Source: Candidatus Omnitrophota bacterium | Lineage (GTDB): Bacteria; Omnitrophota; Gorgyraeia; JAHJTE01 | Assembly: GCA_018830005.1 (NCBI GenBank) | Contig: JAHJTE010000001.1 | Coordinates: forward strand, 257,332 to 321,331 | Direction of reading: 5' to 3' | Length of the DNA: 64,000 nucleotides | Shown here: positions 5,073 to 46,600 of the stretch, one piece after another | Layout of the letters: every line of letters starts with the position of its first letter | Position numbering within the stretch: the stretch's first letter is position 1 | The notes under the pieces: model-generated | The model's database searches: none | Told to the model about the DNA's origin: nothing | Seen by the model: only the letters and a program-made list of their open reading frames with translations | Position numbers and translations under genes: made by a program

Positions 5073-6311
5073 ATGAAAATATTAAGCATTTCTAATCTGG
5101 ATATCTGGCCAGCAGGAGAGAATAAGGGCATACCTTCAATATTTTTTTCACAAAAAGGATTTGTCCAAAGAGGCCATGAGGTATTTTTTTTATCTCCAGC
5201 TAAGATGGGAAAAAGAGGTCAGGAGCTTTATCAGGGAATTAAAATTTTCAGATTTAAATTTCCCTTTTTGCGTTTATTCAGTTCTATTTCTTCTTTACGC
5301 TTAGATAGGTTTTGCTCTCATATAAAAAGCACCTTTCTTTCAAATTTAGAATTGTTATTTTTTCAGCTTCTTTCTTTATTTTGGGCGATTAAGATTGGCT
5401 GCAAGTTAAGGCCAGATCTTATTTATGTCCATAGCCTCACCCCTAGTTTTGTGGGGTGGTTAGCAAGTAAGTTACTAAGAACTAGGCTTGTGTTTAGAAT
5501 ATACGGAACCATAGACCTTTATTGGAAATTTAGGCGTCCCTTAGCCAGGATAAAAGAATTTAGGAGCTATCTTGTTTTTAAGTTAAGGCCAGATTATTTT
5601 GTAATTACTAGAGACGGCACTCAAGGTGCACGCTTAGCTAAGAAGTTAGGGGTAAGAGAGGAGAAAATAATAGATTACCGCAATGGTGTAGATTTTTCTA
5701 TGTATGCCCCAAACCTATATACCAAAGAAAAACTCTGCCAAGAATTAGGGATAGGGACGGATTCTAAGATTATACTTTCTCTTTCAAAGTTAATTCCTTT
5801 CTACGCAGTGGAGCGACTTATATTCTCTCTTGTAGAGCTTTTCAAAGTCGATCCCCATATCGTTTGTATCGTAGCCAGGGATGGTCCAGAAATGGCCAAA
5901 TTAAAGGAGTTTGTTAGCAATAATAATATTGAGAATAGAGTTATTTTTGTTGGCTACGTTGATCGGGAATTTGTTAAGAAATTGCTCAATGTCTGTGATG
6001 TTTTTGTCTCTGTATCAGAATACAGCAATACCAATAATGCCTTATTTGAGGCGATGGTCTGTGCCAGATGTATTGTAACCTTAAAGGATGAAACTATAGA
6101 GGAGACCCTTACTCATAAGAAGAATGCAATTCTAGTTCCTTTAGAAGAATTAAATAGCTTATCTAATATATTAGGAAAAGTTTTATCTGACGACTCAATG
6201 CGAGAGAGGCTAGGTAGGCAAGCCCAGAGCAGGGCTAGAGAAATTCTAGAGAGCTGGCCCGAGAGAATTGATAGGGAGGCGCAGTTACTCGAAGCTTTAA
6301 TAAAATCATAG
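5073..6311 (+). CDS. glycosyltransferase, GT4-like (GT-B fold)
   Basis: C-terminal glycos_transf_1-like region (SEYSNTNNALFEAMVCARCIVT, matching the E-x-FG-x-x-x-EAMA-x-G pattern); about 410 aa. Confidence 0.6.
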   Translation: MKILSISNLDIWPAGENKGIPSIFFSQKGFVQRGHEVFFLSPAKMGKRGQELYQGIKIFRFKFPFLRLFSSISSLRLDRFCSHIKSTFLSNLELLFFQLLSLFWAIKIGCKLRPDLIYVHSLTPSFVGWLASKLLRTRLVFRIYGTIDLYWKFRRPLARIKEFRSYLVFKLRPDYFVITRDGTQGARLAKKLGVREEKIIDYRNGVDFSMYAPNLYTKEKLCQELGIGTDSKIILSLSKLIPFYAVERLIFSLVELFKVDPHIVCIVARDGPEMAKLKEFVSNNNIENRVIFVGYVDREFVKKLLNVCDVFVSVSEYSNTNNALFEAMVCARCIVTLKDETIEETLTHKKNAILVPLEELNSLSNILGKVLSDDSMRERLGRQAQSRAREILESWPERIDREAQLLEALIKS

Positions 6312-6594: not shown

Positions 6595-7016
6595 ATGTTA
6601 AGAGGTTATCTAAAAGATGCCAGAAAAATAATTATAGAGAACGAAAATTTAATAAGAGGAACAAATCCAGATCTGCGTCAGCGTCTTAGAGAGGCTGGCT
6701 ATAGGATAGCCCTGGTACCAGAAACCTGGGCATATCATCCTGCGCCAGGTAACTTCCTTGAGTTGATAAGTGTTTTTTTAAGAAAGGCATATGTTCAGCT
6801 TGGGTTTTCAAGAATTATCCAGAGTTGGTTTATGAGGCGCCTATCCATGAGCAGTCTCAATTTGTGGGTGAGGTGAGTCTGCGATATAGACTACAGCGAC
6901 ATCTTAAGATCATGTTTAAATCTTTTTTTTCTTTAAAATTAATACTTTTAGCCGTTGAATTAAGTTATAGCACAGGTTATGTCATTGGTTTATTGAGACC
7001 TCGGAGGCTGCAATAG
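6595..7016 (+). pseudogene. GT2 glycosyltransferase remnant (C-terminal third only, frameshifted)
   Basis: The 93-aa ORF (NLIRGTNPDLRQRLREAGYRIALVPETWAYHP) matches the GT2 C-terminal block (ED-x-DLCLRLRKAGYKIVYVPEA-x-VYH) but has lost the ED dyad. The hydrophobic tail continues in another frame (6825-7016). No N-terminal GT2 domain is present in the upstream 280 bp. Confidence 0.5.
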
Positions 7017-7027
7017 ATAAACTTAAT

Positions 7028-7798
7028 ATGAAAGCAATTATTATTGCCGCAGGCATGGGGAGTCGTTTGAGTCCATTAACACGTAGTCTGCCTAAATGTA
7101 TGTTGCAGTTTAAGGGTAAGTCACTTCTAGAGCGCCAGCTTGAAGTCTTTAAAGCAGTTAATATAAAGAACATCATCTTGATTAAGGGGTATAGAAAAGA
7201 AAAAATAGATTATCCTAAAATTAAATATTATATCAACGATGACTATGAGAATAATAATATATTGAATTCTTTATTCTATGCAGAGCAAGAGATAGTAGGG
7301 GATGTTATTGTTTCCTATTCAGATATTCTCTTTAAAAGAAGCGTATTAGAAAAACTGCTTACCTCAAAAAATGACATTTCAATCGTAGTGGATAGAGACT
7401 GGAAAGAGAGTTATAAAGGGCGTAAATATCACCCTCAGGAAGAGGCGGAAAAGGTCATACTGGATGCTAATAATAATGTTTTGGAGATAGGGAAGGTCCT
7501 ATCAAAAAATCATGCTGTTTCTGGAGAATTTATTGGTTTGATGAAACTTAGCTCAAGCGGCTCAGGAATATTCAGAGAACATTTTAAAAGAGTGAAAAAG
7601 ATTTATTGGGGAAAGCCTTTTCAGAAAGCCGCTATCTTTCAAAAGGCCTATTTAACCGACATGATTCAAGAGATGTTGGATTGCGGTGCAAAGATTAACT
7701 CTGTAGTCATTGAGGGTGGTTGGAGAGAAATCGATACGATTGAAGATTACGAGAAGGCCTTAAAGGAATTGGGGCAATGTAGTGAATCCCATGATTAA
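7028..7798 (+). CDS. LicC-like sugar/alcohol-phosphate cytidylyltransferase (NTP_transferase fold)
   Basis: Begins MKAIIIAAGMGSRLSPLT (the G-x-G-t-R-L nucleotide loop). The C-terminal region GGWREIDTIEDYEKAL resembles the W-x-E-I/D-D-x-x-DY region of the LicC, phosphocholine and inositol-phosphate cytidylyltransferase group; about 256 aa. Confidence 0.75.
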   Translation: MKAIIIAAGMGSRLSPLTRSLPKCMLQFKGKSLLERQLEVFKAVNIKNIILIKGYRKEKIDYPKIKYYINDDYENNNILNSLFYAEQEIVGDVIVSYSDILFKRSVLEKLLTSKNDISIVVDRDWKESYKGRKYHPQEEAEKVILDANNNVLEIGKVLSKNHAVSGEFIGLMKLSSSGSGIFREHFKRVKKIYWGKPFQKAAIFQKAYLTDMIQEMLDCGAKINSVVIEGGWREIDTIEDYEKALKELGQCSESHD

Positions 7799-9092
7799 AA
7801 ATTTTTCTAACGACAATGATGTAAAGAAGAAGCTTAAATATTGGCGCAGAAGAGTTTTTATTTCTCTTTGGATAACCTATGCCTCATTTTATTTATGTCG
7901 AGTGAATATCTCTATTGCAATCCCTGGGATGTTAGAAGAGTATGCTCTGACAAAGACAGCTATGGGCGTAATACTCAGTGCTCTATTTTCTGCCTATGCT
8001 CTGGGACAATTTATAAATGGACAGTTAGGAGATAAATTTGGAGCCAGAAAATTAATCGCTTTGGGAGCAGTTGTTTCTTCGATATTGAATTTGATCTTTC
8101 CTGTCCTTCCGGGAATTGTATCAGTTTTAGCAATAGTTTGGGGCTTAAATGGATATTTTCAATCCATGGGATGGGCACCCAGTACCAAGACGATAGCTAA
8201 TTGGTTTCCAAGAAGTAGCCGGGGTAAGATTACCGGTATCTTCGGCTCTTGCTATCAAGTTGGTAATGCTTTTAGCTGGGCCTTAGCTGGATTTGTGGTA
8301 GGGTTGTTCGGGTGGCGATTTGCCTTTTGGATTCCCGCGGTTATTCTTATGTTTATTGCAATACAATGGTTTATTAACGGTCGCAATGCTCCCGAAGAAT
8401 TGGGTTTGCCTACAGTTGAGGATTGCCGAAATGGGACCTTTGATGTCAGAGAGAAAGCAAAAGATGAACATTTAGGGTTTAAGTTTACAATGCGTACTGT
8501 GTTGAGTAATCCTCAGATTTGGATGACCGGATTTGCTTTATTCGGTTTAAATATTGTAAGATATGGTTTTATGAGTTGGGCTCCTACTTATATGTTTGAG
8601 ATGGAGAATGTATCTGTGTCAGTCGCAGCTTACAAGGCGATAGCTATACCACTTGTTGGTTCCTTGGGTGCTTTTTTTGCTGGGTGGATTTCGGATAAAT
8701 TCTTTCAATCTCGTAGAGCCCCGATAGTAGTCTTTATGCTCATAGGTCTTATGTTTTTTACTATAATCTATCCTCATCTAAAGCATTTGCATTGGATCTT
8801 TAGTCTAATTTGTCTTATGGCTATAGGATTTACGATATATGGTCCGCATGTAATGATCTGTGCTACAATCCCTATGGATTATGCTTCTCGTAAGGCAACT
8901 GCCTCGGCAGCGGGGTTTATCGATGGCTTAGGATATATTGGCGCCGCATTGACCGGAGTTATTTCAGGATTTTTAGTTGATAATTATGGATGGAATGCAG
9001 CGTTTTATTTTTGGGTGACAGCAGTCTTTTTAGCTGTAATTTTGATGTCTTTGCAGTGGAGATACATTCCTAAAAGTGGTAAATATGAATAA
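7782..9092 (+). CDS. MFS transporter, organophosphate:Pi antiporter (OPA; GlpT/UhpT-like) family
   Basis: 12 TM segments. The N-terminal region WRRRVFISLWITYASFYLCRVNISIA resembles the GlpT/UhpT signature (R-x-x-I/F-x-x-x-F-x-G-Y-x-x-x-Y-L-x-R-K-N-F); about 436 aa. Confidence 0.7.
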   Translation: MNPMIKNFSNDNDVKKKLKYWRRRVFISLWITYASFYLCRVNISIAIPGMLEEYALTKTAMGVILSALFSAYALGQFINGQLGDKFGARKLIALGAVVSSILNLIFPVLPGIVSVLAIVWGLNGYFQSMGWAPSTKTIANWFPRSSRGKITGIFGSCYQVGNAFSWALAGFVVGLFGWRFAFWIPAVILMFIAIQWFINGRNAPEELGLPTVEDCRNGTFDVREKAKDEHLGFKFTMRTVLSNPQIWMTGFALFGLNIVRYGFMSWAPTYMFEMENVSVSVAAYKAIAIPLVGSLGAFFAGWISDKFFQSRRAPIVVFMLIGLMFFTIIYPHLKHLHWIFSLICLMAIGFTIYGPHVMICATIPMDYASRKATASAAGFIDGLGYIGAALTGVISGFLVDNYGWNAAFYFWVTAVFLAVILMSLQWRYIPKSGKYE

Positions 9093-9101
9093 GAACTAGA
9101 G

Positions 9102-9818
9102 GTGGATATGTTTGAGAATTTAGGTGAGATAAAAAAGACACAGAAATCTATGGAATGGTGGACAGAGCTTGTTATATATAAGTTCTCAACCCCCTTAGTC
9201 TCGTTGCTTAAGGATACTTCCATAACTGCAAATCAACTCACTTTAATTTCGCTAAGTGTTGTGATAATCGCATCTTTCATAATAGCCTTGGGTAATTATG
9301 CAGGTTTAATAATAGCAGCAATCTTATTACAGATTAGTTTTATACTAGATAATGCGGATGGACAGCTGGCTCGATATAGGAAGCAGGCCTCTGCATTTGG
9401 TCACTGGCTAGATTCTACATGCGATAGACTCTGTGAACTTTTCATACTTATGGCTCTGACTTATAGATTTTCTTTTGCCAACGACAAGGCATTATTTTTC
9501 GGTTTTTTTAGCCTTTTTCTTATTTATTATTATAACGGATTAGAGTTAAGAAATCCTGCTTATGTTGATCCTAAAGAGAAAAACAAGATAGAGGCTAAAG
9601 AAGGTGCTTTTTTTAGTCAGCTTAGAGTAGTTAAGAATAGACTTAAATGGATACCCTTTAATACGGGAGAGCAATATTTTTTATTCTCGTTATTTTTGGT
9701 TTTGAATCGAATAGATCTCTTCTTTTACTTCTTTATATGTTACGGCAGCCTATTTATAATTTTTCTTAGCGCTTATAAATATTATCAATATAGATTGTTG
9801 ATGAGAGAAGGCCGTTGA
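9102..9818 (+). CDS. CDP-alcohol phosphatidyltransferase family protein
   Basis: Contains LDNADGQLARYRKQASAFGHWLDSTCDRLCE, which fits the family signature D-G-x2-A-R-x8-G-x3-D-x3-D exactly; polytopic membrane protein; the start follows a GAGGTGG ribosome-binding site. Confidence 0.8.
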   Translation: MDMFENLGEIKKTQKSMEWWTELVIYKFSTPLVSLLKDTSITANQLTLISLSVVIIASFIIALGNYAGLIIAAILLQISFILDNADGQLARYRKQASAFGHWLDSTCDRLCELFILMALTYRFSFANDKALFFGFFSLFLIYYYNGLELRNPAYVDPKEKNKIEAKEGAFFSQLRVVKNRLKWIPFNTGEQYFLFSLFLVLNRIDLFFYFFICYGSLFIIFLSAYKYYQYRLLMREGR

Positions 9819-9875: not shown

Positions 9876-10697
9876 ATGCTAATAATTCCTGCACTTTCCA
9901 TAATTATTCCTTCCCGAAACAGTTCTCGTAAAGAAATGAGCGATAAATTACTTTCTGATATCTCGAGGCAAAAAATAGATACCACAATAGAAATTCACCA
10001 GATTAAAGGGATTAGTACTGCCGGAAAAGCAAGGAATATAGGAGCGCAAAGGGCCAAAGGAGAGATCCTTATTTTCATTGATGATGATATTAGTATAGGA
10101 GACGATAAGGCGCTAACTAAACTAATAGAGCCTCTCATTGAGGATAAATCCATAGGCGCTACCTTTTCTGCTTTGCTTATTCCGTCAGATTCGTCGAGTT
10201 TCCAAAGGTCTTATGCAGATCAGATACCACGCTGTGAAATTCCGCCCGTAGATAAGACCACAGATGCCGGGGCAATGTCTACTCATTTTTGCGCAATAAG
10301 AAAAGATGTATTCTTTGGGGTAGGGCGATTTAATGAGAATTTAAAACGCGGCGAGGATCCGGAATTTTCCTTCCGCGCCAAAGGAAGAGAGCTTCGTTTG
10401 GTTCAGGTGGCAAACTTGATTTGTTTTCATGCTGTACCTAATAATTTAAGAGAAGTTGCGAGGCTGCACTTTAGAAACGGCGTCGCTTGTGCCTTTACCG
10501 ATAAGTACTATCCGCATCTAAATATTGATGTAGATCCGCAAAGCATACTAAATCCCGTAGGAAGGCAGATTCGGCTCTTTAGGGTGGGCAGATTCGTTTG
10601 TACTTTTTTTAGGTCAATTTTTAAAGGGCAATTTTTGCTCCTCCTTGCCAAGATAAGTTATATTGCAGGTTATTTTTTAGGCTGGATAAAGAAATGA
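9876..10697 (+). CDS. GT2-like glycosyltransferase (GT-A fold)
   Basis: Begins LSIIIPSRN; contains DDD and GED acidic motifs; C-terminal hydrophobic segment. Confidence 0.55.
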   Translation: MLIIPALSIIIPSRNSSRKEMSDKLLSDISRQKIDTTIEIHQIKGISTAGKARNIGAQRAKGEILIFIDDDISIGDDKALTKLIEPLIEDKSIGATFSALLIPSDSSSFQRSYADQIPRCEIPPVDKTTDAGAMSTHFCAIRKDVFFGVGRFNENLKRGEDPEFSFRAKGRELRLVQVANLICFHAVPNNLREVARLHFRNGVACAFTDKYYPHLNIDVDPQSILNPVGRQIRLFRVGRFVCTFFRSIFKGQFLLLLAKISYIAGYFLGWIKK

Positions 10698-12406
10698 AAG
10701 TTATCTTAATTCGTCCGCCATTTCCAGAACAAAATATGGCCATTCCCGCTGAGCCCTTAGGTTTAGCTTATCTAGCTGCATATCTTAAGAAGAATTTGCA
10801 AGATATAGATCTAGCTATAATTGATGCGAATACTCTTAATTTGTCAATTGAAGAAATTTTAGCTCAAATAAGAGATGTTGATGCTGTGGGTATCTCTTAC
10901 TTAACTGTGCAGGCGGACTTTGCTTATAGTTTATCTAAGAAAATTCGAGATAAGTTTCCTAAAGTTGCTATTATCCACGGTGGAGTGCATCCGACCTGTG
11001 TCTGGCAAGAGACTATGGATTTTTGCGATTATTGCGTATTAGGGGAAGGGGAGGTTACGTTAAGTGAACTCTTGCGTTGTTTAAGAGATAAAACTGATGC
11101 CAGAGAGGTTGAGGGAATCTGTTTTAAAAAAAATGGAAAAATTGTTAATACGCCAAGGCGTGAATTTATTTCCGATATAAATACAATACCTCATCCGGCA
11201 TGGGATTTGCTGGATATAGATAGATATAAGAATCACTCCATTCACGTAATGGCTGGCCAGGCGGTTGGTATTATGGCCTCTCGCGGCTGTCCGTTTAACT
11301 GTTCTTTTTGCGCATCTGCTCTTTTGTGGAAAAATAGAGTACGTTTTAGAGATCCACAGGATATAATCTTTGAAATAGAGCAAATTGTCAATAATTACAG
11401 GATAGATAAATTTCATTTCTACGATGATAATTTTCTCTTAAAAAAAGATTTTGTTTTCTCTCTGTGCGAAGAAATTCTAAAAAAAAAGTTACAAATTTTT
11501 TGGGTTTGCTTAGGGAGAATTTCTTCGATAGAGAGTTACCCGGATTTGTTGGACATAATGTATAAGGCCGGCTGCCGGGGGATAGAGTTAGGTATTGAGA
11601 GCTATGATGATGAGGTTCTAGAAAAAATCAGAAAAAAAGAGTCAACTGAACATATACCGCGAGTTTTTAATCTGCTTAAAGAAAAAAATATAAGCCCCCT
11701 GATGCTTCTAATGACATTTAATCCGGGTGAGACCATAACCGGATGGTATTATCAAGCGCTTAAACTTCGCCAAATTAATCCAGGGGCCGCAACATTTCTG
11801 GGACAATTTGCAACACCATATCCGGGTACAGAATTTGATAACACTTGCGCCAGAGATGGCTTAAAGCTCGTTACCGAATGGAAGGATTATTCTACAAGCC
11901 AGATAAACTTTTTGCCTTTTTCGCTTTTGAAAGACTCACCTAAGAAAACAACTGAGCGACTACAGCCTAAATTTTTGCTCAGAATAATCTACACTAGTTT
12001 AAATCATAATTTTTATTGGAAGAAGGCGAGTCTTTTTAAAAGACTAGAAGGTGCAGTTGTTTGGGCTAACTTTGTAATTTTTTTCTATCAAAAGTGCGGG
12101 CAAGGACCCTCTATTGAACAAATCGCCGGCCTGATGGGAGAGGAATTTAATCTGGATTTGAGATTAAGCCTAAAGGCAACGAGCTTTCTGACTGTGCTCA
12201 TGGCTCAGTTAGGCTTGATCCGCTCTGGAGGTTCAGAGAGGCAAGTCTCGCCATACGAAGAGGTCTTTAGTAAATTCAGAGTGTTTAAATATTTCTTTAA
12301 TCTGATTGCTATTATTCTATATTCGTTATCTGTAATTTCGCATAATGCCGTTAGAAGGGAAACCTTAGAGAGCAGAGATTTAATAATTTCACTTTTTGGA
12401 AAATAA
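10694..12406 (+). CDS. B12-binding-domain radical SAM protein
   Basis: N-terminal Rossmann-like cobalamin-binding domain (DAVGISYLT..., IIHGGVHPT) followed by the radical-SAM cluster motif C-P-F-N-C-S-F-C (C-x3-C-x2-C). 570 aa with a long C-terminal extension ending in a hydrophobic segment. Confidence 0.8.
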   Translation: MKVILIRPPFPEQNMAIPAEPLGLAYLAAYLKKNLQDIDLAIIDANTLNLSIEEILAQIRDVDAVGISYLTVQADFAYSLSKKIRDKFPKVAIIHGGVHPTCVWQETMDFCDYCVLGEGEVTLSELLRCLRDKTDAREVEGICFKKNGKIVNTPRREFISDINTIPHPAWDLLDIDRYKNHSIHVMAGQAVGIMASRGCPFNCSFCASALLWKNRVRFRDPQDIIFEIEQIVNNYRIDKFHFYDDNFLLKKDFVFSLCEEILKKKLQIFWVCLGRISSIESYPDLLDIMYKAGCRGIELGIESYDDEVLEKIRKKESTEHIPRVFNLLKEKNISPLMLLMTFNPGETITGWYYQALKLRQINPGAATFLGQFATPYPGTEFDNTCARDGLKLVTEWKDYSTSQINFLPFSLLKDSPKKTTERLQPKFLLRIIYTSLNHNFYWKKASLFKRLEGAVVWANFVIFFYQKCGQGPSIEQIAGLMGEEFNLDLRLSLKATSFLTVLMAQLGLIRSGGSERQVSPYEEVFSKFRVFKYFFNLIAIILYSLSVISHNAVRRETLESRDLIISLFGK

Positions 12407-12410
12407 GTTT

Positions 12411-13571
12411 ATGAAAAAAACGGACATTTTGTTTCTTACATTTGATTTTCCGCCTCAAGATGGGGGCATCTCTGTAATTATGAGCAGAATCTTCCGTTGT
12501 TTAGGAGAGAGAGCGCTAGTTTTAACTACAAATGTTTTTGGCGATAATGAAAGTAAGGGTTGCGAAACCAAGGCAAAAATTGTAAGGGAAAATTTTAATA
12601 TAAATGTGAATAATTTCAAATTATTGTTTGTAATATTTAAGGTTTTATTTAAGTCTTTAAGACTTCATGGAAAATTCAAGTTCAGGACCATATTAGTGGG
12701 GGAGGTATTCCCTTTAGGGCTTGTGGGGTTGTTTTTTAAATATTTTCTTAGAACTAATTTAGTTACATTTAGTCATGGCTCAGATTCGTTGTTTTCAAAA
12801 AATAAAATTAGAAATTATTTGGTAGGCATAGCCTATCGTAGTGCAGAGTATGTATTATGCTTCTCTGATTACACTAAAAATAACCTCTTAAAATGGAAGG
12901 TTAAAGAAGGAAGGATTAAAAAGATTTCTGCTGGGGTGGATACTGATCTTTTCAATCCTGAAGTAGACACCGCGCCAATAGAAAAAAGGTTTAATTTGAA
13001 AGACAAAAGAGTTATCTTGAGTGTGAATAGGCTGATAATTAGGAAAGGTATAGACACAGCAATAAAGTGTATGCCTCGTTTAATTAAAGAAGTCCCTTCA
13101 GTTTTCTATTTGATAGTAGGGGATGGCTCGGATAAAAAGCGCTTGGAAGATTTGGCCAAAGATCTTCATGTAGAAAATCATTGTTTGTTTGCCGGTAGCG
13201 TCAAGCAAGAGGATTTAGCCGTTTATTACTGCCTAAGCGAATTATTTTTAAATCTAGTGAGGGAAATAAAGAATCCTCTGGATCCCCAGACAGAAGGATT
13301 CGGCTTAATTAATATTGAGGCCGGCGCTTGTTCTAAGGCAGTAATTGCTGGGAAAACCGGTGGCGTAGTCGATGCGATAGAAGATAAAAGGACAGGTTTA
13401 CTTATCGACCCGTTAGATTTAGAGCAAATTACTAATGCCATTTTGCGGTTACTCAGAGACAGGCATTTTGCAAAAGAACTGGGAAAGAACGCTAGAGAGA
13501 AGGTTTTAAATGAGTTTAGGCTAGAGAATTTAAATCAGGATTTAGATAAAATATTACAAAATCTAAAATGA
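12411..13571 (+). CDS. glycosyltransferase GT4
   Basis: C-terminal EGFGLINIEAGACSKAVIAG (E-x-FG-x-x-x-EA motif). Paralog of the CDS at 20458-21606; both begin ..TFDFPP... The track start at 12396 is also possible. Confidence 0.8.
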   Translation: MKKTDILFLTFDFPPQDGGISVIMSRIFRCLGERALVLTTNVFGDNESKGCETKAKIVRENFNINVNNFKLLFVIFKVLFKSLRLHGKFKFRTILVGEVFPLGLVGLFFKYFLRTNLVTFSHGSDSLFSKNKIRNYLVGIAYRSAEYVLCFSDYTKNNLLKWKVKEGRIKKISAGVDTDLFNPEVDTAPIEKRFNLKDKRVILSVNRLIIRKGIDTAIKCMPRLIKEVPSVFYLIVGDGSDKKRLEDLAKDLHVENHCLFAGSVKQEDLAVYYCLSELFLNLVREIKNPLDPQTEGFGLINIEAGACSKAVIAGKTGGVVDAIEDKRTGLLIDPLDLEQITNAILRLLRDRHFAKELGKNAREKVLNEFRLENLNQDLDKILQNLK

Positions 13572-14512
13572 ATATTTCTATTGGCATAGTTAGCTGTAAT
13601 AATAGAGAAATACTTAGAAGATGTATAAAATCAATTTATGCTACTTGTCAAGATACTGATTTTGAAGTAATAGTTGTTGATAATAATTCTTCCGATAGAA
13701 GTCAAGAGATGCTTGTTGATGAATTTCCTGAAGTAAGAATAATAGAAAATAAACAAAATCTGGGTTTTGCCAAGTCAGTTAACCAAGCGATAAGGCAGGC
13801 GCGAGGAAAATTCCTATTTTTAGGAAATGAAGACATAATTTTTAGCCCCGACTGCCTCAGAAGCATGACTGAATATATGAAAGCTAACCCCAAGGTTGGG
13901 ATATTAGGACCAAAAATCATAAATGAAAAAGGCACAACGGAGATGTCTTTTAATAAAAAGTGTTCTAATATTATCCGCTGTATTTTGGATAATCTGTTTT
14001 TTTATTCTTATTTGCGCGCACATTTAGTTGAAAAATATCTTATAAAGAAATTTTCTCCTTTAGTTAAAAAAGGATTACAGGAGATCAAGCAGGTAGCCTG
14101 GGTTTCTGGTGCAGCTTTTCTCCTGCGTAAATCTGCAACAGAAAAAGTAGGTCTTATGGATGAAAGCTTTTTTATGTACTGTGAAGATGAGGATTTTGGT
14201 TGTCGGATGACAAACGCTGGTTGGCAAGTGCATTTCTTCCCCCGGGGAGTTATTACTCATTCGCGAGGAAGCAGCACTCAAAAAAGTCCGGTTAATTTTA
14301 CATTCGAAGCTACAAAGAGCCAGGTAATTTTTTACAGGAAAAGATATAATCGAATTGCTCTAGTCCTAGTAAAGGCGTTACTTTTTTATAGACTAACAGT
14401 GGAATTGGTATTTTTGTGCATTTACAGCTTATTTTCAAAAAACTTAAGGAAGTTAATAAGCAGAAAGCAAAAAAATTATATTTTTACTATTCATAAACTT
14501 TTTTTTATTTAA
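13568..14512 (+). CDS. glycosyltransferase GT2
   Basis: Begins ISIGIVSCNN with FEVIVVDNNSSD (D-x-D region) and a conserved C-terminal GT-A region. Confidence 0.8.
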   Translation: MNISIGIVSCNNREILRRCIKSIYATCQDTDFEVIVVDNNSSDRSQEMLVDEFPEVRIIENKQNLGFAKSVNQAIRQARGKFLFLGNEDIIFSPDCLRSMTEYMKANPKVGILGPKIINEKGTTEMSFNKKCSNIIRCILDNLFFYSYLRAHLVEKYLIKKFSPLVKKGLQEIKQVAWVSGAAFLLRKSATEKVGLMDESFFMYCEDEDFGCRMTNAGWQVHFFPRGVITHSRGSSTQKSPVNFTFEATKSQVIFYRKRYNRIALVLVKALLFYRLTVELVFLCIYSLFSKNLRKLISRKQKNYIFTIHKLFFI

Positions 14513-14525
14513 GGACTTAGAGTAA

Positions 14526-15476
14526 ATGGAAGAAGTTAAGTGTCTGATTTGTGATAGGAAAGAGACTAAGCATTATAGAAATATTAAGTGTTCTAAGCCT
14601 AGGCAGGTGAGTTTTACTCTCCTTCAGTGTAATGTTTGCGGATTGATATATTTAAATCCCCGGCCAGATAAGCGCGAGATGCAGGAATTCTATCCTTTTT
14701 GGCCAGAGGGCGGGGGCAGGCAAGAAGGAATTAAACTAGATTGGAAGTCAAAAAGAAAAAAAGTTAATTTACTAAGAAATATTTTAGCAAAAAGAGGCAA
14801 TGTGCTGGATATTGGAGCAGGCGCAGGTGAGTTTTTAAGCATTATGCAGGGGCTGGGTTGGCAGGCCTACGGCATAGAGTTTGCTAAAGTGACTTCCAAT
14901 TATGCCAGAGAAAAGCTTGCTTTAAACGTATTAAGCAAAGATCTTCTAGGGGCAAATTTTGAATCAGATTTTTTTGATTTAATTACTTTTTGGGATGTGA
15001 TTGAGCATCTACATAAGCCTAAAGAGACCTTGCTTGAGATTAATAGAATTTTAAAAAAGGAGGGGCTGTTGGTAATATCAGCTCCAAACATCGATAATCT
15101 ATGGGCTTATATTTTTAAAGATTATTGGTACACAAATTCGCCCCGGCATCTTTATCAGTTTAGCCCAAGGACTATCTTAAGGTTATTAGAGGGTGCCGAT
15201 TTTAAAGTAGTTAATATTATTCAGCGTGCCGGATTTTTTGAACCAGTAGGCTTTGTGGTAACTTTTAAGAATTGGCTCTTAGCTAGTTTAAGAGGGGATA
15301 GCCGTAACTTAAATTCAAGTTCGGCATTTGCTCAAGATGCTAGATTAAATAAACTCGCAAGCCCAATAAAGCAATTCATGCGTTTAATTTTGGAGGCAGC
15401 ATTTTTTCCATTTTCGCTAATAAGCGTATTGCTTGAGAAAGCTCCAAACATGATTATTTTTGCAAGAAAATGCTAG
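14526..15476 (+). CDS. class I SAM-dependent methyltransferase with N-terminal C4 zinc-ribbon
   Basis: Begins CLICDRKET...CNVCGLIYLNP (a Cys4 ribbon), followed by methyltransferase motif I LDIGAGAGEF and motif II LITFWDVIEHL. Confidence 0.7.
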   Translation: MEEVKCLICDRKETKHYRNIKCSKPRQVSFTLLQCNVCGLIYLNPRPDKREMQEFYPFWPEGGGRQEGIKLDWKSKRKKVNLLRNILAKRGNVLDIGAGAGEFLSIMQGLGWQAYGIEFAKVTSNYAREKLALNVLSKDLLGANFESDFFDLITFWDVIEHLHKPKETLLEINRILKKEGLLVISAPNIDNLWAYIFKDYWYTNSPRHLYQFSPRTILRLLEGADFKVVNIIQRAGFFEPVGFVVTFKNWLLASLRGDSRNLNSSSAFAQDARLNKLASPIKQFMRLILEAAFFPFSLISVLLEKAPNMIIFARKC

Positions 15477-16606
15477 ATAAACAGAATATCTTATACATAA
15501 CCGAATCTGCAGTGTTAGGTGGGGCTGAAATTAGCCTCTTTGAATTAATTACTAATCTTGATAGGGAAAGATTTAATCCCTTTATCATCTGTTCCGAAGA
15601 AGGTCCGTTAATAGAGAAATTCAATCAATGGCAGATTCCGAACGCAGTAATCCCTTTATATCGGGTACGCCAAATTAGCTTTTGGAGGTTTTTAAAGTCT
15701 GTAAAGGAGCTAGTCAAATTTTTAAAGACCAATGAGATTAAGCTTGTGCATACAAATAGTACTAGAGCAAATTTCCTTGGTGCCTTAGCTGCGAGGATAG
15801 TAAGAGTTCCTGTAGTTTGGCACGTGAGAAACCTAGTAGCCCCGAGCCTTTTTATAGATTTAGAAAAATATTTCACTTTTTTGCCTGCGGCGATTATTAC
15901 GAATTCGCATGCTACAGCAAAGAGGTTTCCTCATGCACAAAAGAAGGTAACCGTGATTTATAATGGCCTAGATCTTAGAGTCTTTAATCCCGGAATTAGT
16001 AAGGATACTTTACACAAGGAATTTAATATAAGCCTAAAGACAAAAATTGTCGCTGTTGTAGGAAGGTTGGGGCCGGGTAAAGGTCAAGAGGTATTTTTGC
16101 AGGCCGTATCTTTACTTAAAGAAAAGGTGCAAGATGTGAAGTTTTTTATTGTTGGGAGTGCTGGTTATGAAAAAGATGTCCCAATAGAGGAATCCCTAAA
16201 GACTCAGATAAAATCCTTGGGCCTTGAAAAAGATGTTATTTTTACTGGATTTCGTAAAGACAGATCCGAGGTTATGGCCTCAATTGATATATTGGTTAGC
16301 CCTGAGTCTATTACCGGTCAGGCATTTGGTAAGGTTTTGGCCGAGGCACAGGCAACAGGCGTGCCAGTTATCGTCACAGATGCTGGGGCAGCGTCGGAGG
16401 TAGTAGAGAAAGATGCAACTGGGATATTAGTTCCAATGAGGGATGCGACATCGCTTGCTGAGGCAATAAAATTTCTGTTGGATAATGAGGAATTATCTAA
16501 TAAGATGGGTCAAGCGGGTCGTGCTAGAGCAGAAAAATTATTCAATATTAAAGAAACGACCAAAGAGATTGAGCAAATTTATATTGATTTATTAAATAAG
16601 GCATAA
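15470..16606 (+). CDS. glycosyltransferase GT4
   Basis: Glycos_transf_1 C-terminal domain (SPESITGQAFGKVLAEAQATGVPVIVTD). Confidence 0.8.
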   Translation: MLDKQNILYITESAVLGGAEISLFELITNLDRERFNPFIICSEEGPLIEKFNQWQIPNAVIPLYRVRQISFWRFLKSVKELVKFLKTNEIKLVHTNSTRANFLGALAARIVRVPVVWHVRNLVAPSLFIDLEKYFTFLPAAIITNSHATAKRFPHAQKKVTVIYNGLDLRVFNPGISKDTLHKEFNISLKTKIVAVVGRLGPGKGQEVFLQAVSLLKEKVQDVKFFIVGSAGYEKDVPIEESLKTQIKSLGLEKDVIFTGFRKDRSEVMASIDILVSPESITGQAFGKVLAEAQATGVPVIVTDAGAASEVVEKDATGILVPMRDATSLAEAIKFLLDNEELSNKMGQAGRARAEKLFNIKETTKEIEQIYIDLLNKA

Positions 16607-16610
16607 CTTA

Positions 16611-18065
16611 ATGAACAGACTAAGGTTAATTATTAAAAATACCGCAGGTTTCCTTGGTTCGCTTATCTTTAATAGGTTTTTAAATTTTTTAGTAACAATT
16701 ATTCTAGTTCGTTATCTGGGCCCCAAAAACTTAGGTCAATATACTTTCGTCTTGACCTTTGCCGGTCTGTTTGCTCTGTTTTGCGATTTGGGTATTGGTC
16801 AGTTAGTAACCCGAGAGGTTAGCCAAGATAGGACGCGTGCAGGAAGTTTTCTAGGAAATTACCTTTCTCTACAACTGCTACTTTCTTCAGTTGTTGTGGT
16901 TGTAATGGTCATTGTTATAAACCATTTTCAATATCCACATATAATAAGGTTGGCACTTTATATCACTGGTCTGAATTTATTGGTTGTTTCTCTCGCGCAA
17001 CCTTTTTTCAATATTGCGATAGCCTTTGAGAAATTACGCTTCACAGCTATTGCGAGTATTATCGGCAATATTTTTTATTGTTTGAGTTTGCTGGCTGCCG
17101 TTTTCTTCCGCAAAGGTCTATTAATTTTAGTCTCGGTCAGCTTAGTAACCAGTATCTTAGAGTTTTTTTTGGTAGCATTTATATGTTCAAGATTCTGCGT
17201 CAAACCAATTTTTAAATTTAATAAACTTCTTTGGCTTACTGTGGCACGGTTTTTTCTTCCCTTTGCATTATATATTGTCTTTACTGGTCTTTACAGGCGC
17301 ATTGATATCGTAATGTTATCGAGAATGAAGACAGATATAGCTGTGGGTTTCTATGGCGCCGCCTATAAGATTATTTATTTATTTATTTTAATTCCCACAA
17401 GTTTTTCCAGGGCAGTATTTCCACTCTTAAGCCAGCAGGCAGCTGAGGATAGGATTAAACTTTCCCAGACTGTTTCCTGGTCCATGAAATATTTACTCGC
17501 TCTAGGCTTTCCTATAGCTATCATTGGAAGTTTTTTCTGCCGAGAGATAATATTGCTTCTTTTTGGCCCTGAGTTCCTGAATTCAGCCGTAGTTTTAAAT
17601 ATACTTATTTGGGTACTCGTTTTAGTCTTCTGGCATTCAATTTTAAGCCAGGCCCTAATTGCTATTAAAAATATGCTTGCAGTAGTCTCTGGTACAATAA
17701 TTGCTTTTATACTTAACGTAGGATTAAATTTCTTATTGATTCCTAAATATAGCTATGTGGGCGCAGCCGCCACTACCGTTTTTTCTGAACTTTTTATAGG
17801 GCTTTGGTTCTATTTATCTTTAAGAAAAATATTGCCTTTAAAGTATTCTTTATATGATTTCTTAAAGATTGTTATAGCTAGTTTAATTATGATTTTATTA
17901 TTTCAGCTTACGTATCAGTTTTATTTTTTAATTGTCATTACACTAGGGATTGTTTTCTATATAATTGCACTTTACCTGCTGCATTTTATAGGGCGAGGAG
18001 AGAGAGTACTTCTGAAGGAGGCGTTTGCTAGAAAAGATGGTTTGTTCAAAAGGGATGCGATTTAG
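16611..18065 (+). CDS. Wzx-like polysaccharide flippase (second copy, MOP family)
   Basis: 484 aa, about 12-14 TM segments; N-terminal LVRYLGPKNLGQYTFVLTFAGLFALFCDLGIGQ typical of the polysaccharide biosynthesis protein family. Confidence 0.7.
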   Translation: MNRLRLIIKNTAGFLGSLIFNRFLNFLVTIILVRYLGPKNLGQYTFVLTFAGLFALFCDLGIGQLVTREVSQDRTRAGSFLGNYLSLQLLLSSVVVVVMVIVINHFQYPHIIRLALYITGLNLLVVSLAQPFFNIAIAFEKLRFTAIASIIGNIFYCLSLLAAVFFRKGLLILVSVSLVTSILEFFLVAFICSRFCVKPIFKFNKLLWLTVARFFLPFALYIVFTGLYRRIDIVMLSRMKTDIAVGFYGAAYKIIYLFILIPTSFSRAVFPLLSQQAAEDRIKLSQTVSWSMKYLLALGFPIAIIGSFFCREIILLLFGPEFLNSAVVLNILIWVLVLVFWHSILSQALIAIKNMLAVVSGTIIAFILNVGLNFLLIPKYSYVGAAATTVFSELFIGLWFYLSLRKILPLKYSLYDFLKIVIASLIMILLFQLTYQFYFLIVITLGIVFYIIALYLLHFIGRGERVLLKEAFARKDGLFKRDAI

Positions 18066-29836: not shown

Positions 29837-30451
29837 ATGAACATATTGGCAATCGGTGCGCATCCGGATGATATTGAATTTGGCTGCGGTGGGACATTAT
29901 TGAAATATACTAAGGCCAAAAATAATGTTTATCTTTTAATTTTAACTAAAGGAGAAATCGGAGCCTCTGGCGCTAGGCGATGTCAAGAGCAGAAAGAATC
30001 CGCTAAATTCTTAAAAGCAAAACGCGTTTTTTGGGGGAATTATAAGGACACTAAAATATGTTTAACCAAAGAGTTGATTGGAAAGATCGAGGCAATATTG
30101 AATAAGGTTAAGCCAGAGATTGTCTTATTTAATGCTCCTTCTGATATCCATCAAGATCACAGGGTGGTTGCAGAGGCCGCTATTTCAGCTACAAGATATA
30201 TAAAGAAGGTCTTATTTTATGAGGTCCCGACTACTATTGGCTTTGAGCCGGATATATTTGTTGATATTGGTGATATTATCTTTGAAAAACTCCAACTCCT
30301 AAAGTTGCATCGTTCTCAAGTGCATAAGACAAGAGTCCCAGGCTTAAGTATAATGGATAGTGCGACCTCTTGTGCAAATTTCAGGGGTTTTCAGGGGCGA
30401 GTGAAGTATGCTGAGGGATTCAAGGCCTTAAGGTTTATGTTAGAGTCATGA
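29837..30451 (+). CDS. PIG-L/LmbE-family N-acetylglucosaminyl deacetylase
   Basis: Begins MNILAIGAHPDDIEFGCGGTL (the AHPDDE zinc-binding signature), with later HQDH. Confidence 0.8.
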   Translation: MNILAIGAHPDDIEFGCGGTLLKYTKAKNNVYLLILTKGEIGASGARRCQEQKESAKFLKAKRVFWGNYKDTKICLTKELIGKIEAILNKVKPEIVLFNAPSDIHQDHRVVAEAAISATRYIKKVLFYEVPTTIGFEPDIFVDIGDIIFEKLQLLKLHRSQVHKTRVPGLSIMDSATSCANFRGFQGRVKYAEGFKALRFMLES

Positions 30452-31503
30452 AATTATTCTATATTTTCATCTTTTCAGTAGTGAGCACATTTATTTTCAC
30501 GCAGATTGCGATAAGGATCGGTTTTAAATTCAATGTCCTTGACCGCCCCGAGAAGAGGAAGATACACGTTCAGCCGGTTCCTCTATTGGGAGGTCTTGCC
30601 CTTGCTATTCCATATCTGTTAATCCTTTTTGTAATTAGAAATGAATTTGATATTGTAATTCTCAGTGTATTGTTTGGAGGCCTTATTATACTTATTGTAG
30701 GTTTTTTGGATGATCTTAATAAGCTTTCAGCCAGGTTACGCCTAGGTATTCAGATACTTGTAGTTTTAATGCTTATTACAAATTCAGCCACATTGACTAT
30801 TTTTCCTAATACAGCTTGGGGTATTATCTTAAGATGTCTTATAACCATCCTCTGGATTGTAGGAATAACGAATGCTATGAATTTCCTCGATGGAATGGAT
30901 GCGCTCTGCGCAGGTCTAGTCTGTATTAGTAGCCTTTGTTTTGCTGTAATTGCTTTTTTCACAAATCAGAATCAGATTTTATTTTTGAGTATTATTCTTT
31001 TCGGCTGCTGTTTGGGTTTTCTGCCGCATAACCTTAAGCCAGCAAAGGTTTTCTTAGGTGATTCTGGCAGCACATTTTTGGGATTTATGCTGGCAAGTAT
31101 TGCTGTTGTTGGCGTGTGGGCACAAGACCGTATTGTAGGGATAAGCATCCCAATTTTAATTCTCGGGGTTCCTATTTTTGATATGGTTTTTACTACGGTT
31201 ATGCGTGTTAAAGAGGGGAAAGTGAAGAATGTTAAACAGTGGTTAGAATATGCTGGTAAAGATCATTTTCATCATAGGCTAGTAGATTTAGGTCTGCAGC
31301 CTCAAGGAGCGGTTATTTTCATTTATCTAGTCAGCATATGTTTAGGTATTAGTGCTATGGTACTACTTAGAGCTACTTGGAAGATTGCTATTATTTTATT
31401 GATTCAGGCAGCCGCGATTTTTCTAATGATAGCCGTACTTATGATTATTGGCAAACGTCGCCGCAGCGGCTGGAATATAGATAAACTAAAAGCTAAGGAT
31501 TAA
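30448..31503 (+). CDS. polyprenyl-phosphate N-acetylhexosamine-1-phosphate transferase (WecA/MraY family)
   Basis: Contains VLDRPEKRKIHVQPVPLLGG and NAMNFLDGMDAL (the family's N-A-x-N-x-x-DG-x-D motif), 10-11 TM segments, and an ATGA overlap with the upstream PIG-L gene. Confidence 0.85.
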   Translation: MKLFYIFIFSVVSTFIFTQIAIRIGFKFNVLDRPEKRKIHVQPVPLLGGLALAIPYLLILFVIRNEFDIVILSVLFGGLIILIVGFLDDLNKLSARLRLGIQILVVLMLITNSATLTIFPNTAWGIILRCLITILWIVGITNAMNFLDGMDALCAGLVCISSLCFAVIAFFTNQNQILFLSIILFGCCLGFLPHNLKPAKVFLGDSGSTFLGFMLASIAVVGVWAQDRIVGISIPILILGVPIFDMVFTTVMRVKEGKVKNVKQWLEYAGKDHFHHRLVDLGLQPQGAVIFIYLVSICLGISAMVLLRATWKIAIILLIQAAAIFLMIAVLMIIGKRRRSGWNIDKLKAKD

Positions 31504-45844: not shown

Positions 45845-46600
45845 ATGAAGGCAATATTACTTGCAGCCGGTTATGCTACCAGGCTTTATCCTTTGACCTT
45901 AAATTTTCCCAAGGCATTGCTGCCTATTAATTGCGTGCCGGTTATTAATATTATTATCCATAAATTGGAATTGATCCCTGATATAAATGAGATTATAGTT
46001 GTGACGAATAATCGTTTTCATACTGATTTTAAGAATTGGGCTAAAGAATATCATTTCAAAAAGAAGGTAACTATCCTCAATGATAAGACAGCCTCAGATG
46101 AGGATAAATTAGGAGCCATCGCCGATCTAGGTTTTGTAATTGATAAAAAGAATATAAAAGAGGATATTGTCATTATTGGCGCTGATAATCTTTTTGATGC
46201 AAAGTTAGGAAATTTCATAAAATGGGGCAGGGAATCAAAAAAGATTTGCGTTGGACTTTTTGACTTTAAGAAAAAAACTGAGGTAACAAAATACGGTGTT
46301 GTTCGGATTGGCCGCAATAGAAAGATTACAAATTTTCAAGAGAAGCCAAGACAACCTAAGTCGACCCTGGTGGCAATGTGTCTATATTATTTTCCCAAGG
46401 GAAAGGGAAAGATTATTGATAGGTATTTGCGCTTGAGTCAGAAAAAAGATGCAGTTGGACACTATATTAGCTGGCTTGTTAAGAAGGGTTACGCCTATGG
46501 TTGGGTTTTTAACGGCAGATGGTTTGACATCGGAGATAAAAAACAGTACTTTAAAGCAAACAAGACATTCCAGACGGTAATACACCCTGATTTAATATAA
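45845..46600 (+). CDS. sugar-phosphate nucleotidyltransferase family protein
   Basis: Begins MKAILLAAGYATRLYPLT (G-x-G-t-R-L loop); 251 aa; substrate cannot be called from sequence. Confidence 0.6.
   Translation: MKAILLAAGYATRLYPLTLNFPKALLPINCVPVINIIIHKLELIPDINEIIVVTNNRFHTDFKNWAKEYHFKKKVTILNDKTASDEDKLGAIADLGFVIDKKNIKEDIVIIGADNLFDAKLGNFIKWGRESKKICVGLFDFKKKTEVTKYGVVRIGRNRKITNFQEKPRQPKSTLVAMCLYYFPKGKGKIIDRYLRLSQKKDAVGHYISWLVKKGYAYGWVFNGRWFDIGDKKQYFKANKTFQTVIHPDLI

Follow-up and report, generated by a model that had tools for sequence, protein, structure and literature searches.

A putative import-fed cytidylyltransferase and CDP-alcohol phosphotransferase module in an Omnitrophota glycan locus, with a possible role in phosphonyl tailoring

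In the 64,000-nucleotide stretch of the Candidatus Omnitrophota contig JAHJTE010000001.1 that we analysed as a whole (hereafter the window), three co-directional genes at 7028-9818 on the + strand encode a cytidylyltransferase of the LicC/PntC fold (NT), a transporter of the organophosphate antiporter (OPA) type within the major facilitator superfamily (MFS), and a CDP-alcohol phosphotransferase (CAPT). The trio recurs in the same order in independent contigs, and the NT family to which its first member belongs is repeatedly found beside genes for phosphonate synthesis or phosphonate uptake. We propose, with about even confidence, that the trio is an import-fed, PEP-mutase-less module for phosphonyl tailoring, analogous to the lic pathway. 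The architecture itself, in which a head group is imported, activated and transferred, we consider quite probable, and if that architecture holds, a phosphonate is the somewhat favoured head group.

In the proposed scheme the OPA-type MFS would import a free organophosphorus anion of small size, probably against Pi. Its substrate would most likely be an alkylphosphonate, i.e., methylphosphonate (MPn), hydroxymethylphosphonate (HMP) or 2-hydroxyethylphosphonate (HEP), with 2-aminoethylphosphonate (AEP) as a possible alternative. The NT, judged from its fold and context, would then join the imported compound and CTP into a CMP conjugate, so that no kinase would be needed. Finally, the CAPT would attack the beta-phosphorus at the cytoplasmic face of the membrane, releasing CMP and esterifying the phosphonyl group to an acceptor hydroxyl. 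The acceptor may be the undecaprenyl-linked repeat unit of the surrounding Wzx/Wzy glycan or a (glyco)lipid, which the adjoining glycosyltransferases of families 2 and 4 (GT2 and GT4) would build or extend. The weakest link of the scheme is the preference for MPn, HMP or HEP over AEP, which draws on the MPnS and iron-containing alcohol dehydrogenase (Fe-ADH) contexts of NT relatives and on a PtxB-like binding protein encoded next to some of them.

Layout and conservation of the trio

The NT open reading frame (ORF; 7028..7798, + strand, 256 aa, ATG start) overlaps by 17 nt with the MFS ORF (7782..9092, + strand, 436 aa, GTG start), which is separated by 9 nt from the CAPT ORF (9102..9818, + strand, 238 aa from a GTG start, annotated as 236 aa from an ATG at 9108). 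An earlier note on this DNA, made from the letters alone, had described three overlapping or tightly spaced genes embedded in a glycan locus, and this description is borne out by the ORFs and by the GT4, GT2 and GT4 genes that flank them. Scans for promoters and terminators around the trio returned counts no better than those from shuffled sequence.

Close relatives of the CAPT are few, with 22 matches in a word-indexed search and 49 representative clusters at E <= 1e-30 in an exhaustive one. The closest are 54-64% identical to the window protein, and in the contexts covered, which are those of the 57-59% identical relatives, MFS and NT precede the CAPT in the same order wherever the contig allows. 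The gene order GT2-NT-MFS-CAPT-GT4 is seen in the loci L003/L004/L005 and L007, and in L006 up to the end of the contig, with identities to the window of 57-59% for the CAPT and 57-74% for the MFS; in L007, the GT2 and the NT are fused in a single protein of 529 aa. Downstream of these related trios lie genes for GT4, GT9, a methyltransferase, DegT, GDSL, a radical SAM protein with SPASM domain (rSAM-SPASM), GT4, WbqC, PIG-L and a WecA-like enzyme, which are those of the window at 18-31 kb, and the whole locus is therefore syntenic. As a side observation, the window differs from L006 and L007 by ~8 kb of extra sequence (9876-18065) between the CAPT and the conserved block from GT9 to WecA, carrying genes for a GT2, a B12-binding radical SAM enzyme (B12-rSAM), a GT4, a further GT2, a methyltransferase, a further GT4 and a second Wzx.

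More divergent combinations of NT, MFS and CAPT occur in Aminicenantes-type loci (L013, L015, L017), in Tritonobacter (L045), in a nanoarchaeon (L075) and in eight further metagenome loci, and even distant CAPT relatives (27-41% identical) still lie in glycan loci, once with an NT and no MFS (L010). The earlier note had made its reading depend on the trio being conserved as a unit elsewhere, and our gene-neighbourhood comparison found the ordered trio in independent contigs and its pairings conserved across phyla, so the adjacency is not due to chance. Fusions of NT and CAPT were sought among the top CAPT representatives, where the long matches turned out to be tandem CAPTs, DUF5941 fusions or proteins with N-terminal parts that have no Pfam match.

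Family assignment and genomic contexts of the three proteins

The transporter is a clear member of the MFS (MFS_1, E 1.9e-56 in Pfam), and its best NCBIfam models are all of the OPA family (TIGR00881 267.8, GlpT 258, UhpC 239 and UhpT 160 bits), compared with 46 bits for NarK and 155 bits for the galactonate family. Its nearest solved structure is GlpT (1pw4, E 1e-57). The OPA assignment of the earlier note thus stands, and the protein does not group with nitrate or sugar porters. Its scores stay under the curated cut-offs (TIGR00881 267.8 vs 407.75; glpT 258 vs 632), and by sequence it is best classed as a divergent OPA subfamily. Residues R40 and R260 align with the Pi-binding R45 and R269 of GlpT, while Q76 and Y158 stand at the positions of GlpT K80 and H165, and all four are invariant in 18 relatives. 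K80 and H165 are the residues of GlpT reported to contact glycerol (Law et al. 2009). The MFS would be an importer of an organophosphorus head group in exchange for Pi. A GlpT orthologue working with CDP-glycerol, following the logic of TagD and TagF, was also considered and rejected, given that the window holds no TagF-like match, that K80 and H165 are replaced, and that the PF01467 partner of the MFS family (described below) is not specifically TagD-like.

The neighbourhoods of the MFS subfamily were scanned in metagenomes at the best 80 MFS-seeded loci (51-74% identity). A cytidylyltransferase is encoded at most three genes upstream in 52 of the 56 loci with room upstream, being an NT only in 23 of them, a PF01467 enzyme only in 21 and both in 8. 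Since either enzyme can hold this position, the MFS subfamily is coupled to cytidylyl activation whatever the fold of the enzyme. The PF01467 partner (138 aa) is about equally similar to 5x9q ("putative cytidylyltransferase") and to 5x3d (the HEP-cytidylyltransferase domain of Fom1), less so to TagD (E 2.5e-8), and its first NCBIfam match is RfaE domain II. A CAPT is also present in 10 of the 26 longer MFS loci, and a few carry LicD and a NUDIX gene instead. In Aminicenantes-type loci, a gene for the phosphate-selective porin Porin_O_P directly follows the MFS (L013 at 8658-9803, L015, L016, L017 and L093), and in four of these (L013, L015, L017 and L093) a CAPT follows as well, which argues for uptake across both membranes.

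These neighbourhoods lend support to two ideas of the earlier note, namely that the trio imports, activates and transfers a head group, and that the importer takes the place of a kinase. The first is consistent with the recurring ordered trio, with the upstream cytidylyltransferase in 52/56 loci and with the porins that follow the MFS in some phyla; the second with the same 52/56 loci, with the Porin_O_P gene beside the MFS, and with the PhnD-type ATP-binding cassette (ABC) importers that follow the same NT family elsewhere. Several variants of the MFS neighbourhood were observed alongside. DUF2490 proteins occupy a position similar to that of Porin_O_P in six loci (L025, L074 and L097-L100). 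Variants of the subfamily with a PF01467 cytidylyltransferase also have a NUDIX hydrolase in L132, L151, L154 and L170, a weakly Porin_O_P-like protein is encoded in L151, L154 and L170, and a LicD-family transferase in L132, L135 and L145.

The NT passes the Pfam cut-offs of PF00483 NTP_transferase (43.8 bits, cut-off 21.2) and PF12804 NTP_transf_3 (42 bits, cut-off 27). Among solved structures, LicC (1jyk) is the nearest to it by sequence (E 1.3e-18), in an alignment that spans only the N-terminal 115 aa, with weaker matches to PntC (6pd1) and to the Thermotoga maritima IPCT (4jd0). A model of the NT was obtained with AlphaFold (AF2) from 23 homologues, with a predicted local distance difference test (pLDDT) score of 90.6, and its top Foldseek matches were PntC (6pd2, E 4.7e-18, TM-score 0.79), LicC (1jyl, 8.3e-17) and two IPCT structures (3.9e-16; IPCT 4jd0 being among the top matches), whereas RmlA and GlmU rank lower (~2e-14) by a modest margin. 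The N-terminal nucleotide-binding signature G-x-G-x-R...P-K is present, with G9, G11, R13 and K23 invariant in 23 family members. Beyond the N-terminal ~115 residues the family no longer resembles PntC or LicC in sequence and has a conserved C-terminal half of its own. Judged by its model, the NT is of the LicC/PntC/IPCT kind and not a sugar-1-phosphate enzyme, in line with the LicC-type cytidylyltransferase that the earlier note had proposed; a sugar-1-phosphate nucleotidyltransferase was ruled out by the fold ranking together with the gene context.

The CAPT passes PF01066 CDP-OH_P_transf (54.3 bits, cut-off 22), and the motif D83-x2-D86-G-x2-A-R-x8-G100-x3-D104-x3-D108 is intact (residues 83-108, DNADGQLARYRKQASAFGHWLDSTCD), as the earlier note had read it, with the four Asp, G87, G100, A90 and R91 invariant in the family alignment. 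Its closest solved structures by sequence are AF2299 (4o6m, E 1.9e-18) and IPCT-DIPPS (4mnd, E 8.9e-8). The AF2 model (pLDDT 83.7) has the fold of a CAPT membrane domain, matching AF2299 (TM-score 0.68-0.71, E 2.8e-7) and DIPPS (TM-score 0.63) in Foldseek, with CDP-diacylglycerol enzymes clearly lower. The membrane domain of AF2299 has six transmembrane helices, and the protein was reportedly crystallised with CDP-glycerol; both AF2299 and DIPPS use or bind small soluble CDP-alcohols. These best structural relatives of the modelled CAPT point to a soluble CMP/CDP donor. No named CAPT equivalog was reached among archaetidylinositol-phosphate synthase, PIP synthase, DIPPS, PgsA, PssA and ClsA, the scores being 71.9 vs a cut-off of 180, 54 vs 170, 56.4 vs 580 (DIPPS) and 27 vs 109, and the best NCBIfam matches are inositol-phosphate-using synthases and DIPPS.

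The phosphonate link comes mainly from the relatives of the NT, which number more than 5000. Many of these are 60-74% identical to the window NT, and most of the best matches are 370-aa fusions with an N-terminal helix-turn-helix (HTH) domain of the XRE type (~115 aa), which the window NT lacks. The HTH-NT fusions, which make up most of the family and are seen in loci from L013 to L092, recall NadR and BirA, two enzymes that double as repressors of their own salvage or uptake genes. The window NT is 45-74% identical to NTs encoded beside MPnS/PepM, PhnDCE or OPA-type MFS genes. We surveyed the best 80 genome loci of NT relatives, which come from Pelagibacteraceae, Rhodospirillales, Aminicenantes, KSB1, Omnitrophota, Planctomycetia and Patescibacteria as well as from Nano-, Aenigm- and Promethearchaeota. 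In 45 of the 80, genes for a binding protein (PF12974 Phosphonate-bd), an ABC ATPase and a permease come directly after the NT; in 11 it is followed by an OPA-type MFS; and in 15 it has a biosynthetic context (PepM, Ppd or MPnS), with PEP-mutase fusions, a Ppd-like thiamine pyrophosphate enzyme, Fe-ADH and a bicupin. With a score above the TIGR01098 cut-off for phosphate/phosphite/phosphonate binders, the binding protein is nearer to the PtxB/PhnD1 binders of phosphite and MPn (5o2j 2e-27, 5lv1, 5jvb) than to E. coli PhnD (9e-19). The bicupin is MPnS-like (6b9s, E 7e-81 and 1.7e-108), scoring well above its HepD match. Biosynthesis genes and an ABC or MFS transporter occur together in only 2 of those 15 loci (Fisher p 1e-6, uncorrected for phylogeny and from a sample rich in SAR11), and in a neighbour-joining tree of 124 NTs, the MPnS/PepM-, ABC- and MFS-adjacent members interleave. 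PepM is adjacent or fused to members of the NT family in eight loci, which is not the case for the window NT.

SAR11 single-cell genomes offer a direct comparison of two cassettes. L031 reads IlvD-ManC-TagF-like-x-CyT:PepM-Ppd-FeADH-HTH:NT-MPnS-SMR, and L044 and L042 read IlvD-ManC-(TagF-like)-HTH:NT-PhnD-PhnC-PhnE-SMR. Between L031 and L042 the NT sequence is 92% identical and the chromosomal locus is the same, with PepM...MPnS in the one genome and PhnDCE in the other; the same enzyme is therefore served by either a synthesis or an importer cassette. We also observed that both forms retain the TagF-like gene, and that this locus is followed after a few genes by those for a histidine kinase and a PBP_like_2 (PstS-like) protein.

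CAPTs of the kind found in the window also occur in PepM clusters of Omnitrophota. In L065 (10001-20386), the order is Wzx, NT, EamA, rSAM-SPASM, PepM:NT, Ppd, CAPT (269 aa), GT2, methyltransferase, CAPT (228 aa) and PMT_2; both CAPTs are CDP-OH_P_transf genes by Pfam, the 269-aa one directly after Ppd and the 228-aa one a member of the same homology cluster as the window CAPT. L078 is similar, with PepM:NT-Ppd and, within a few genes, a CAPT of that cluster. Neither Fe-ADH nor an aminotransferase was detected in the PepM cluster of L065.

Surrounding locus and alternative explanations

The trio lies inside a long one-strand glycan locus of the Wza/Wzc/Wzy/Wzx type, which extends up to the WecA-like gene at 30448-31503. 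The upstream part carries Wza, Wzc, Wzy, a deacetylase, Wzx and methyltransferases; the rest comprises GT9 heptosyltransferase-like genes, DegT, rSAM-SPASM, WbqC and PIG-L before the WecA-like initiating transferase, past which lie LpxB and an ABC_membrane/ABC_tran exporter that we read as MsbA-like. Neither a LicA choline kinase nor LicD was found by Pfam annotation of the window genes, LicD being confined to some of the distant MFS loci. An unrelated second NTP_transferase gene (251 aa) occurs at 45845-46600, between genes for enzyme I of the phosphotransferase system and metK/ahcY.

All of the immediate neighbours are on the + strand. Upstream of the trio is a GT4 (5073..6311; Pfam Glycos_transf_1 and Glyco_transf_4). 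A GT2 (9876..10697; Glycos_transf_2) starts 57 nt downstream of the CAPT, its stop being overlapped by the B12-rSAM gene (10694..12406; B12-binding and Radical_SAM), and another GT4 follows (12396..13571; Glycos_transf_1, E 6.4e-36) that is 31-36% identical to the GT4 directly after the CAPT in L003-L007. Between the upstream GT4 and the NT, tblastn with the GT2-NT fusion of L007 revealed a frameshifted, N-terminally truncated GT2 remnant (6625..7004, + strand). Residues 148-202 of the fusion match 6625-6789 (frame 1, 62%) and residues 199-274 match 6777-7004 (frame 3, 59%), the match running on into the NT; the N-terminal 147 residues of the GT2 are missing, and an overlapping ORF at 6595-6876 has no Pfam hit. 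The intact GT2 at 9876-10697 is a paralogue of the decayed one, with identities of 40% to the GT2 portion of the L007 fusion protein and 35% to the GT2 of L003. In related loci, the counterpart of the remnant is fused to the NT or directly precedes it. Because the decayed fragments directly upstream match the L007 fusion, the window NT seems, by sequence, to derive from an ancestor that was fused to a GT2 or closely paired with one.

Several observations weigh against a phosphonyl-tailoring module. All three trio proteins score under every NCBIfam equivalog cut-off, and when LicC D105/D192 and PntC E104/E196 are mapped onto the NT through HMMER alignments, the register of the loops is ambiguous. 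GlpT is the closest match of the MFS, which taken alone fits glycerol-3-phosphate, and the PF01467 partner does not discriminate the substrate, since it resembles 5x9q, 5x3d and RfaE domain II alike. The absence of a PepM match, which suits an import-fed form, holds for the 64-kb window only. Furthermore, the neighbourhood counts are not independent, because the samples consist of the best 80 matches and SAR11 single-cell genomes dominate. Finally, in L017 (4778-12423) and L155 the OPA-type MFS and a PhnD/PhnC/PhnDE ABC importer share one operon with an NT and a porin-like gene (L017 also having a CAPT and L155 a PF01467 cytidylyltransferase), a coexistence that would be unexpected from simple redundancy, and in L091, L112 and L133 the MFS lies near PepM fusions; the MFS may therefore be more than a plain substitute for biosynthesis.

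The earlier note had instead favoured an imported phosphate ester (glycerol-3-phosphate, phosphoethanolamine, phosphocholine or inositol phosphate), which after activation to CDP-X would donate phospho-X to a glycan or lipid. This we regard as rather unlikely, and these substrates as less likely than a phosphonate. A phosphate ester would suit GlpT and LicC as the closest solved relatives by sequence, the inositol-phosphate-using synthases and DIPPS among the best CAPT matches, AF2299 as the top CAPT structure, and the partial resemblance of the PF01467 enzyme to TagD. Against it stand the company that the NT family keeps with MPnS, PepM and Phosphonate-bd importers, the CAPTs in PepM clusters, the replacement of the GlpT glycerol residues by an invariant Q and Y, and phosphate-ester equivalog matches that are all far under their cut-offs; neither MIPS nor choline kinase nor LicA was found among the conserved neighbours of the trio families, and as cells make glycerol-3-phosphate themselves, an obligate coupling to an importer would be hard to explain. 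The same membership of the NT family in phosphonate contexts argues against a soluble phosphodiester osmolyte of the di-myo-inositol-phosphate or diglycerol-phosphate type, made by NT and CAPT in the manner of IPCT/DIPPS. Both proteins do match the bifunctional IPCT/DIPPS model (53 bits for the NT, 56 for the CAPT) and the structure 4mnd, but far under the 580-bit cut-off, with no inositol-phosphate synthase among the conserved neighbours and with genes that form part of a syntenic Wzx/Wzy glycan locus, next to GT2/GT4 partners and in one case as a GT2-NT fusion. On these scores and this context the osmolyte was rejected, and we see hardly any likelihood in it.

The role of the transporter could also differ from that of a phosphonyl-tailoring importer. 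The MFS could export free phosphonate or exchange it for Pi, or flip the lipid-linked product as LtaA does, in which case the substrate of the NT would be made elsewhere in the genome; this would agree with a pepM exclusion that covers only the 64-kb window. The MFS genes beside PepM fusions and those coexisting with an ABC importer would fit this, as would the PepM clusters L065 and L078, where an EamA-type transporter takes this place behind the NT. We nevertheless consider it improbable, as the MFS has the signature arginines of the OPA family and not a flippase-like pocket, uptake is indicated by the Porin_O_P gene that accompanies it in diderm relatives, a transporter and PepM hardly ever occur together, and the binding-protein-dependent ABC systems in the equivalent position are importers. 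A different chemistry would be conceivable if phosphite were imported, cytidylylated and P-methylated by the adjacent B12-rSAM to CMP-methylphosphonate before transfer by the CAPT, i.e., a PEP-mutase-independent route to the C-P bond. The PtxB/PhnD1-like binding protein is in its favour, as are the matches of the window B12-rSAM to the P-methyltransferase families Sden_1168 (2.2e-33) and PhpK (4.8e-30) and the recurrence of B12-rSAM homologues near NT, MFS or CAPT in ten loci. BchE (4.6e-57) is nonetheless the better match, all three lie far below their cut-offs, B12-rSAM genes occur in only 2/26 and 6/65 longer loci (the 65 being NT-seeded) and in none of the SAR11 NT-ABC gene strings, and we know of no precedent for phosphite cytidylylation. 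This makes the phosphite route very improbable. The B12-rSAM may possibly be part of the module; as a neighbour with no assigned role, it does not sit neatly with phosphonyl tailoring.

Implications and comparison with known systems

If the trio is indeed a phosphonyl-tailoring module, its relatives suggest a wider proposal, which we put forward tentatively and with somewhat less than even confidence: that prokaryotes of many phyla scavenge environmental alkylphosphonates for surface glycans or lipids and not for nutrition, through an importer (OPA MFS or PhnD-type ABC), a cytidylyltransferase and a phosphotransferase (CAPT, LicD or TagF-like), with "make" (PepM...MPnS) and "take" (importer) cassettes interchangeable at one locus. 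Both free-living and episymbiotic lineages may be involved, among them SAR11, Rhodospirillales, Omnitrophota, Aminicenantes, Patescibacteria, DPANN and Asgard archaea. A more radical and speculative sub-case would have imported phosphite converted on the CMP conjugate by a B12-rSAM P-methyltransferase that forms the C-P bond. Aerobic methane production has been attributed to methyl- and hydroxyethylphosphonate esters of polysaccharides, and phosphonate-decorated surfaces are, in current models, restricted to cells with PEP mutase, phosphonate importers being taken as nutritional. Were the proposal true, the polymer-bound phosphonate pool could be fed and recycled by far more taxa, counts of pepM would fall short of the number of phosphonate-bearing cells, and phnD-like genes would have been mis-scored as catabolic markers. 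Phosphonates account for up to 25% of marine dissolved organic phosphorus (PMC9381506). The analysis also proposes a function for the very large, well-conserved and so far unnamed NT family, usually HTH-fused, and points to a small CAPT subfamily in a role not recognised before and to a "kinase-less" route to head-group activation.

The module shares features with several described systems. In the Pnt pathway, PntC, an enzyme of the LicC fold, activates a phosphonate as its CMP conjugate for cell-surface glycans or lipids (Rice et al. 2019, PMC6697681). PntC is the best structural match of the window NT, whose relatives occur in PepM clusters; PntC is, however, defined by its proximity or fusion to Ppm, whereas the 64-kb window is without PepM, and the transferases described in PMC6697681 are LicD-like, with no CDP-alcohol phosphotransferase, transporter or salvage mentioned there. 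An NT and CAPT pair is part of the phosphonolipid clusters predicted in Nostoc and Burkholderia, with the order pepM-ppd-AEPT-NTP transferase-CDP-alcohol phosphatidyltransferase (PMC5987646), and a PntC-like gene next to an AF2299-like CAPT has been noted in Borg elements (bioRxiv 10.1101/2024.11.05.622173). In those clusters, the pair is likewise proposed to make and transfer a CMP-phosphonate, and L065 and L078 are their Omnitrophota equivalents. They make AEP de novo, whereas the window has an OPA importer instead and lies in a glycan locus, and its family context (MPnS, Fe-ADH) points to alkylphosphonates and not to an AEP transaminase. The earlier note did not recognise the trio as a described operon type, and this holds in part: as NT and CAPT next to pepM have already been drawn (PMC5987646), only the importer-fed, pepM-less form appears undescribed. 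No OPA- or ABC-coupled PntC/CAPT module is described in Rice 2019, Li & Horsman 2022, Acker 2022 or Lockwood 2022. What appears to be new is a dedicated organophosph(on)ate importer in place of head-group synthesis or a kinase, together with a modular design of exchangeable parts, in which the importer is an MFS or ABC system, the activator an NT or PF01467 enzyme, and the transferase a CAPT, LicD or TagF-like protein.

The lic pathway of Streptococcus pneumoniae and Haemophilus (LicB/LicA/LicC/LicD) resembles the proposed module in its sequence of import, activation by a LicC-fold enzyme and transfer to a lipid-linked glycan precursor. The window differs in having neither the LicA kinase nor a LicB-type choline permease, its importer coming instead from a family that carries already phosphorylated or phosphonylated anions, and in using a CAPT in place of LicD, although in L132, L135 and L145 this position is held by LicD-like genes. 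AepP of Pseudomonas putida is a GlpT-like OPA permease that imports 2-AEP, having kept the Pi-binding residues and lost the glycerol-binding ones (PMC8316502), and the window MFS, compared with AepP through this published description, has the same residue pattern. AepP feeds catabolism, with 2-AEP as a source of N or P; the window MFS is coupled to a cytidylyltransferase, which implies incorporation instead. Lastly, AF2299 and the IPCT-DIPPS of Archaeoglobus fulgidus are the closest solved structures to the CAPT, with the same motif and membrane-domain fold, and in IPCT-DIPPS the IPCT is an NT of the same fold fused to its CAPT. The window CAPT differs from DIPPS in scoring far under its cut-off and in its context, which is a glycan locus and not osmolyte synthesis.

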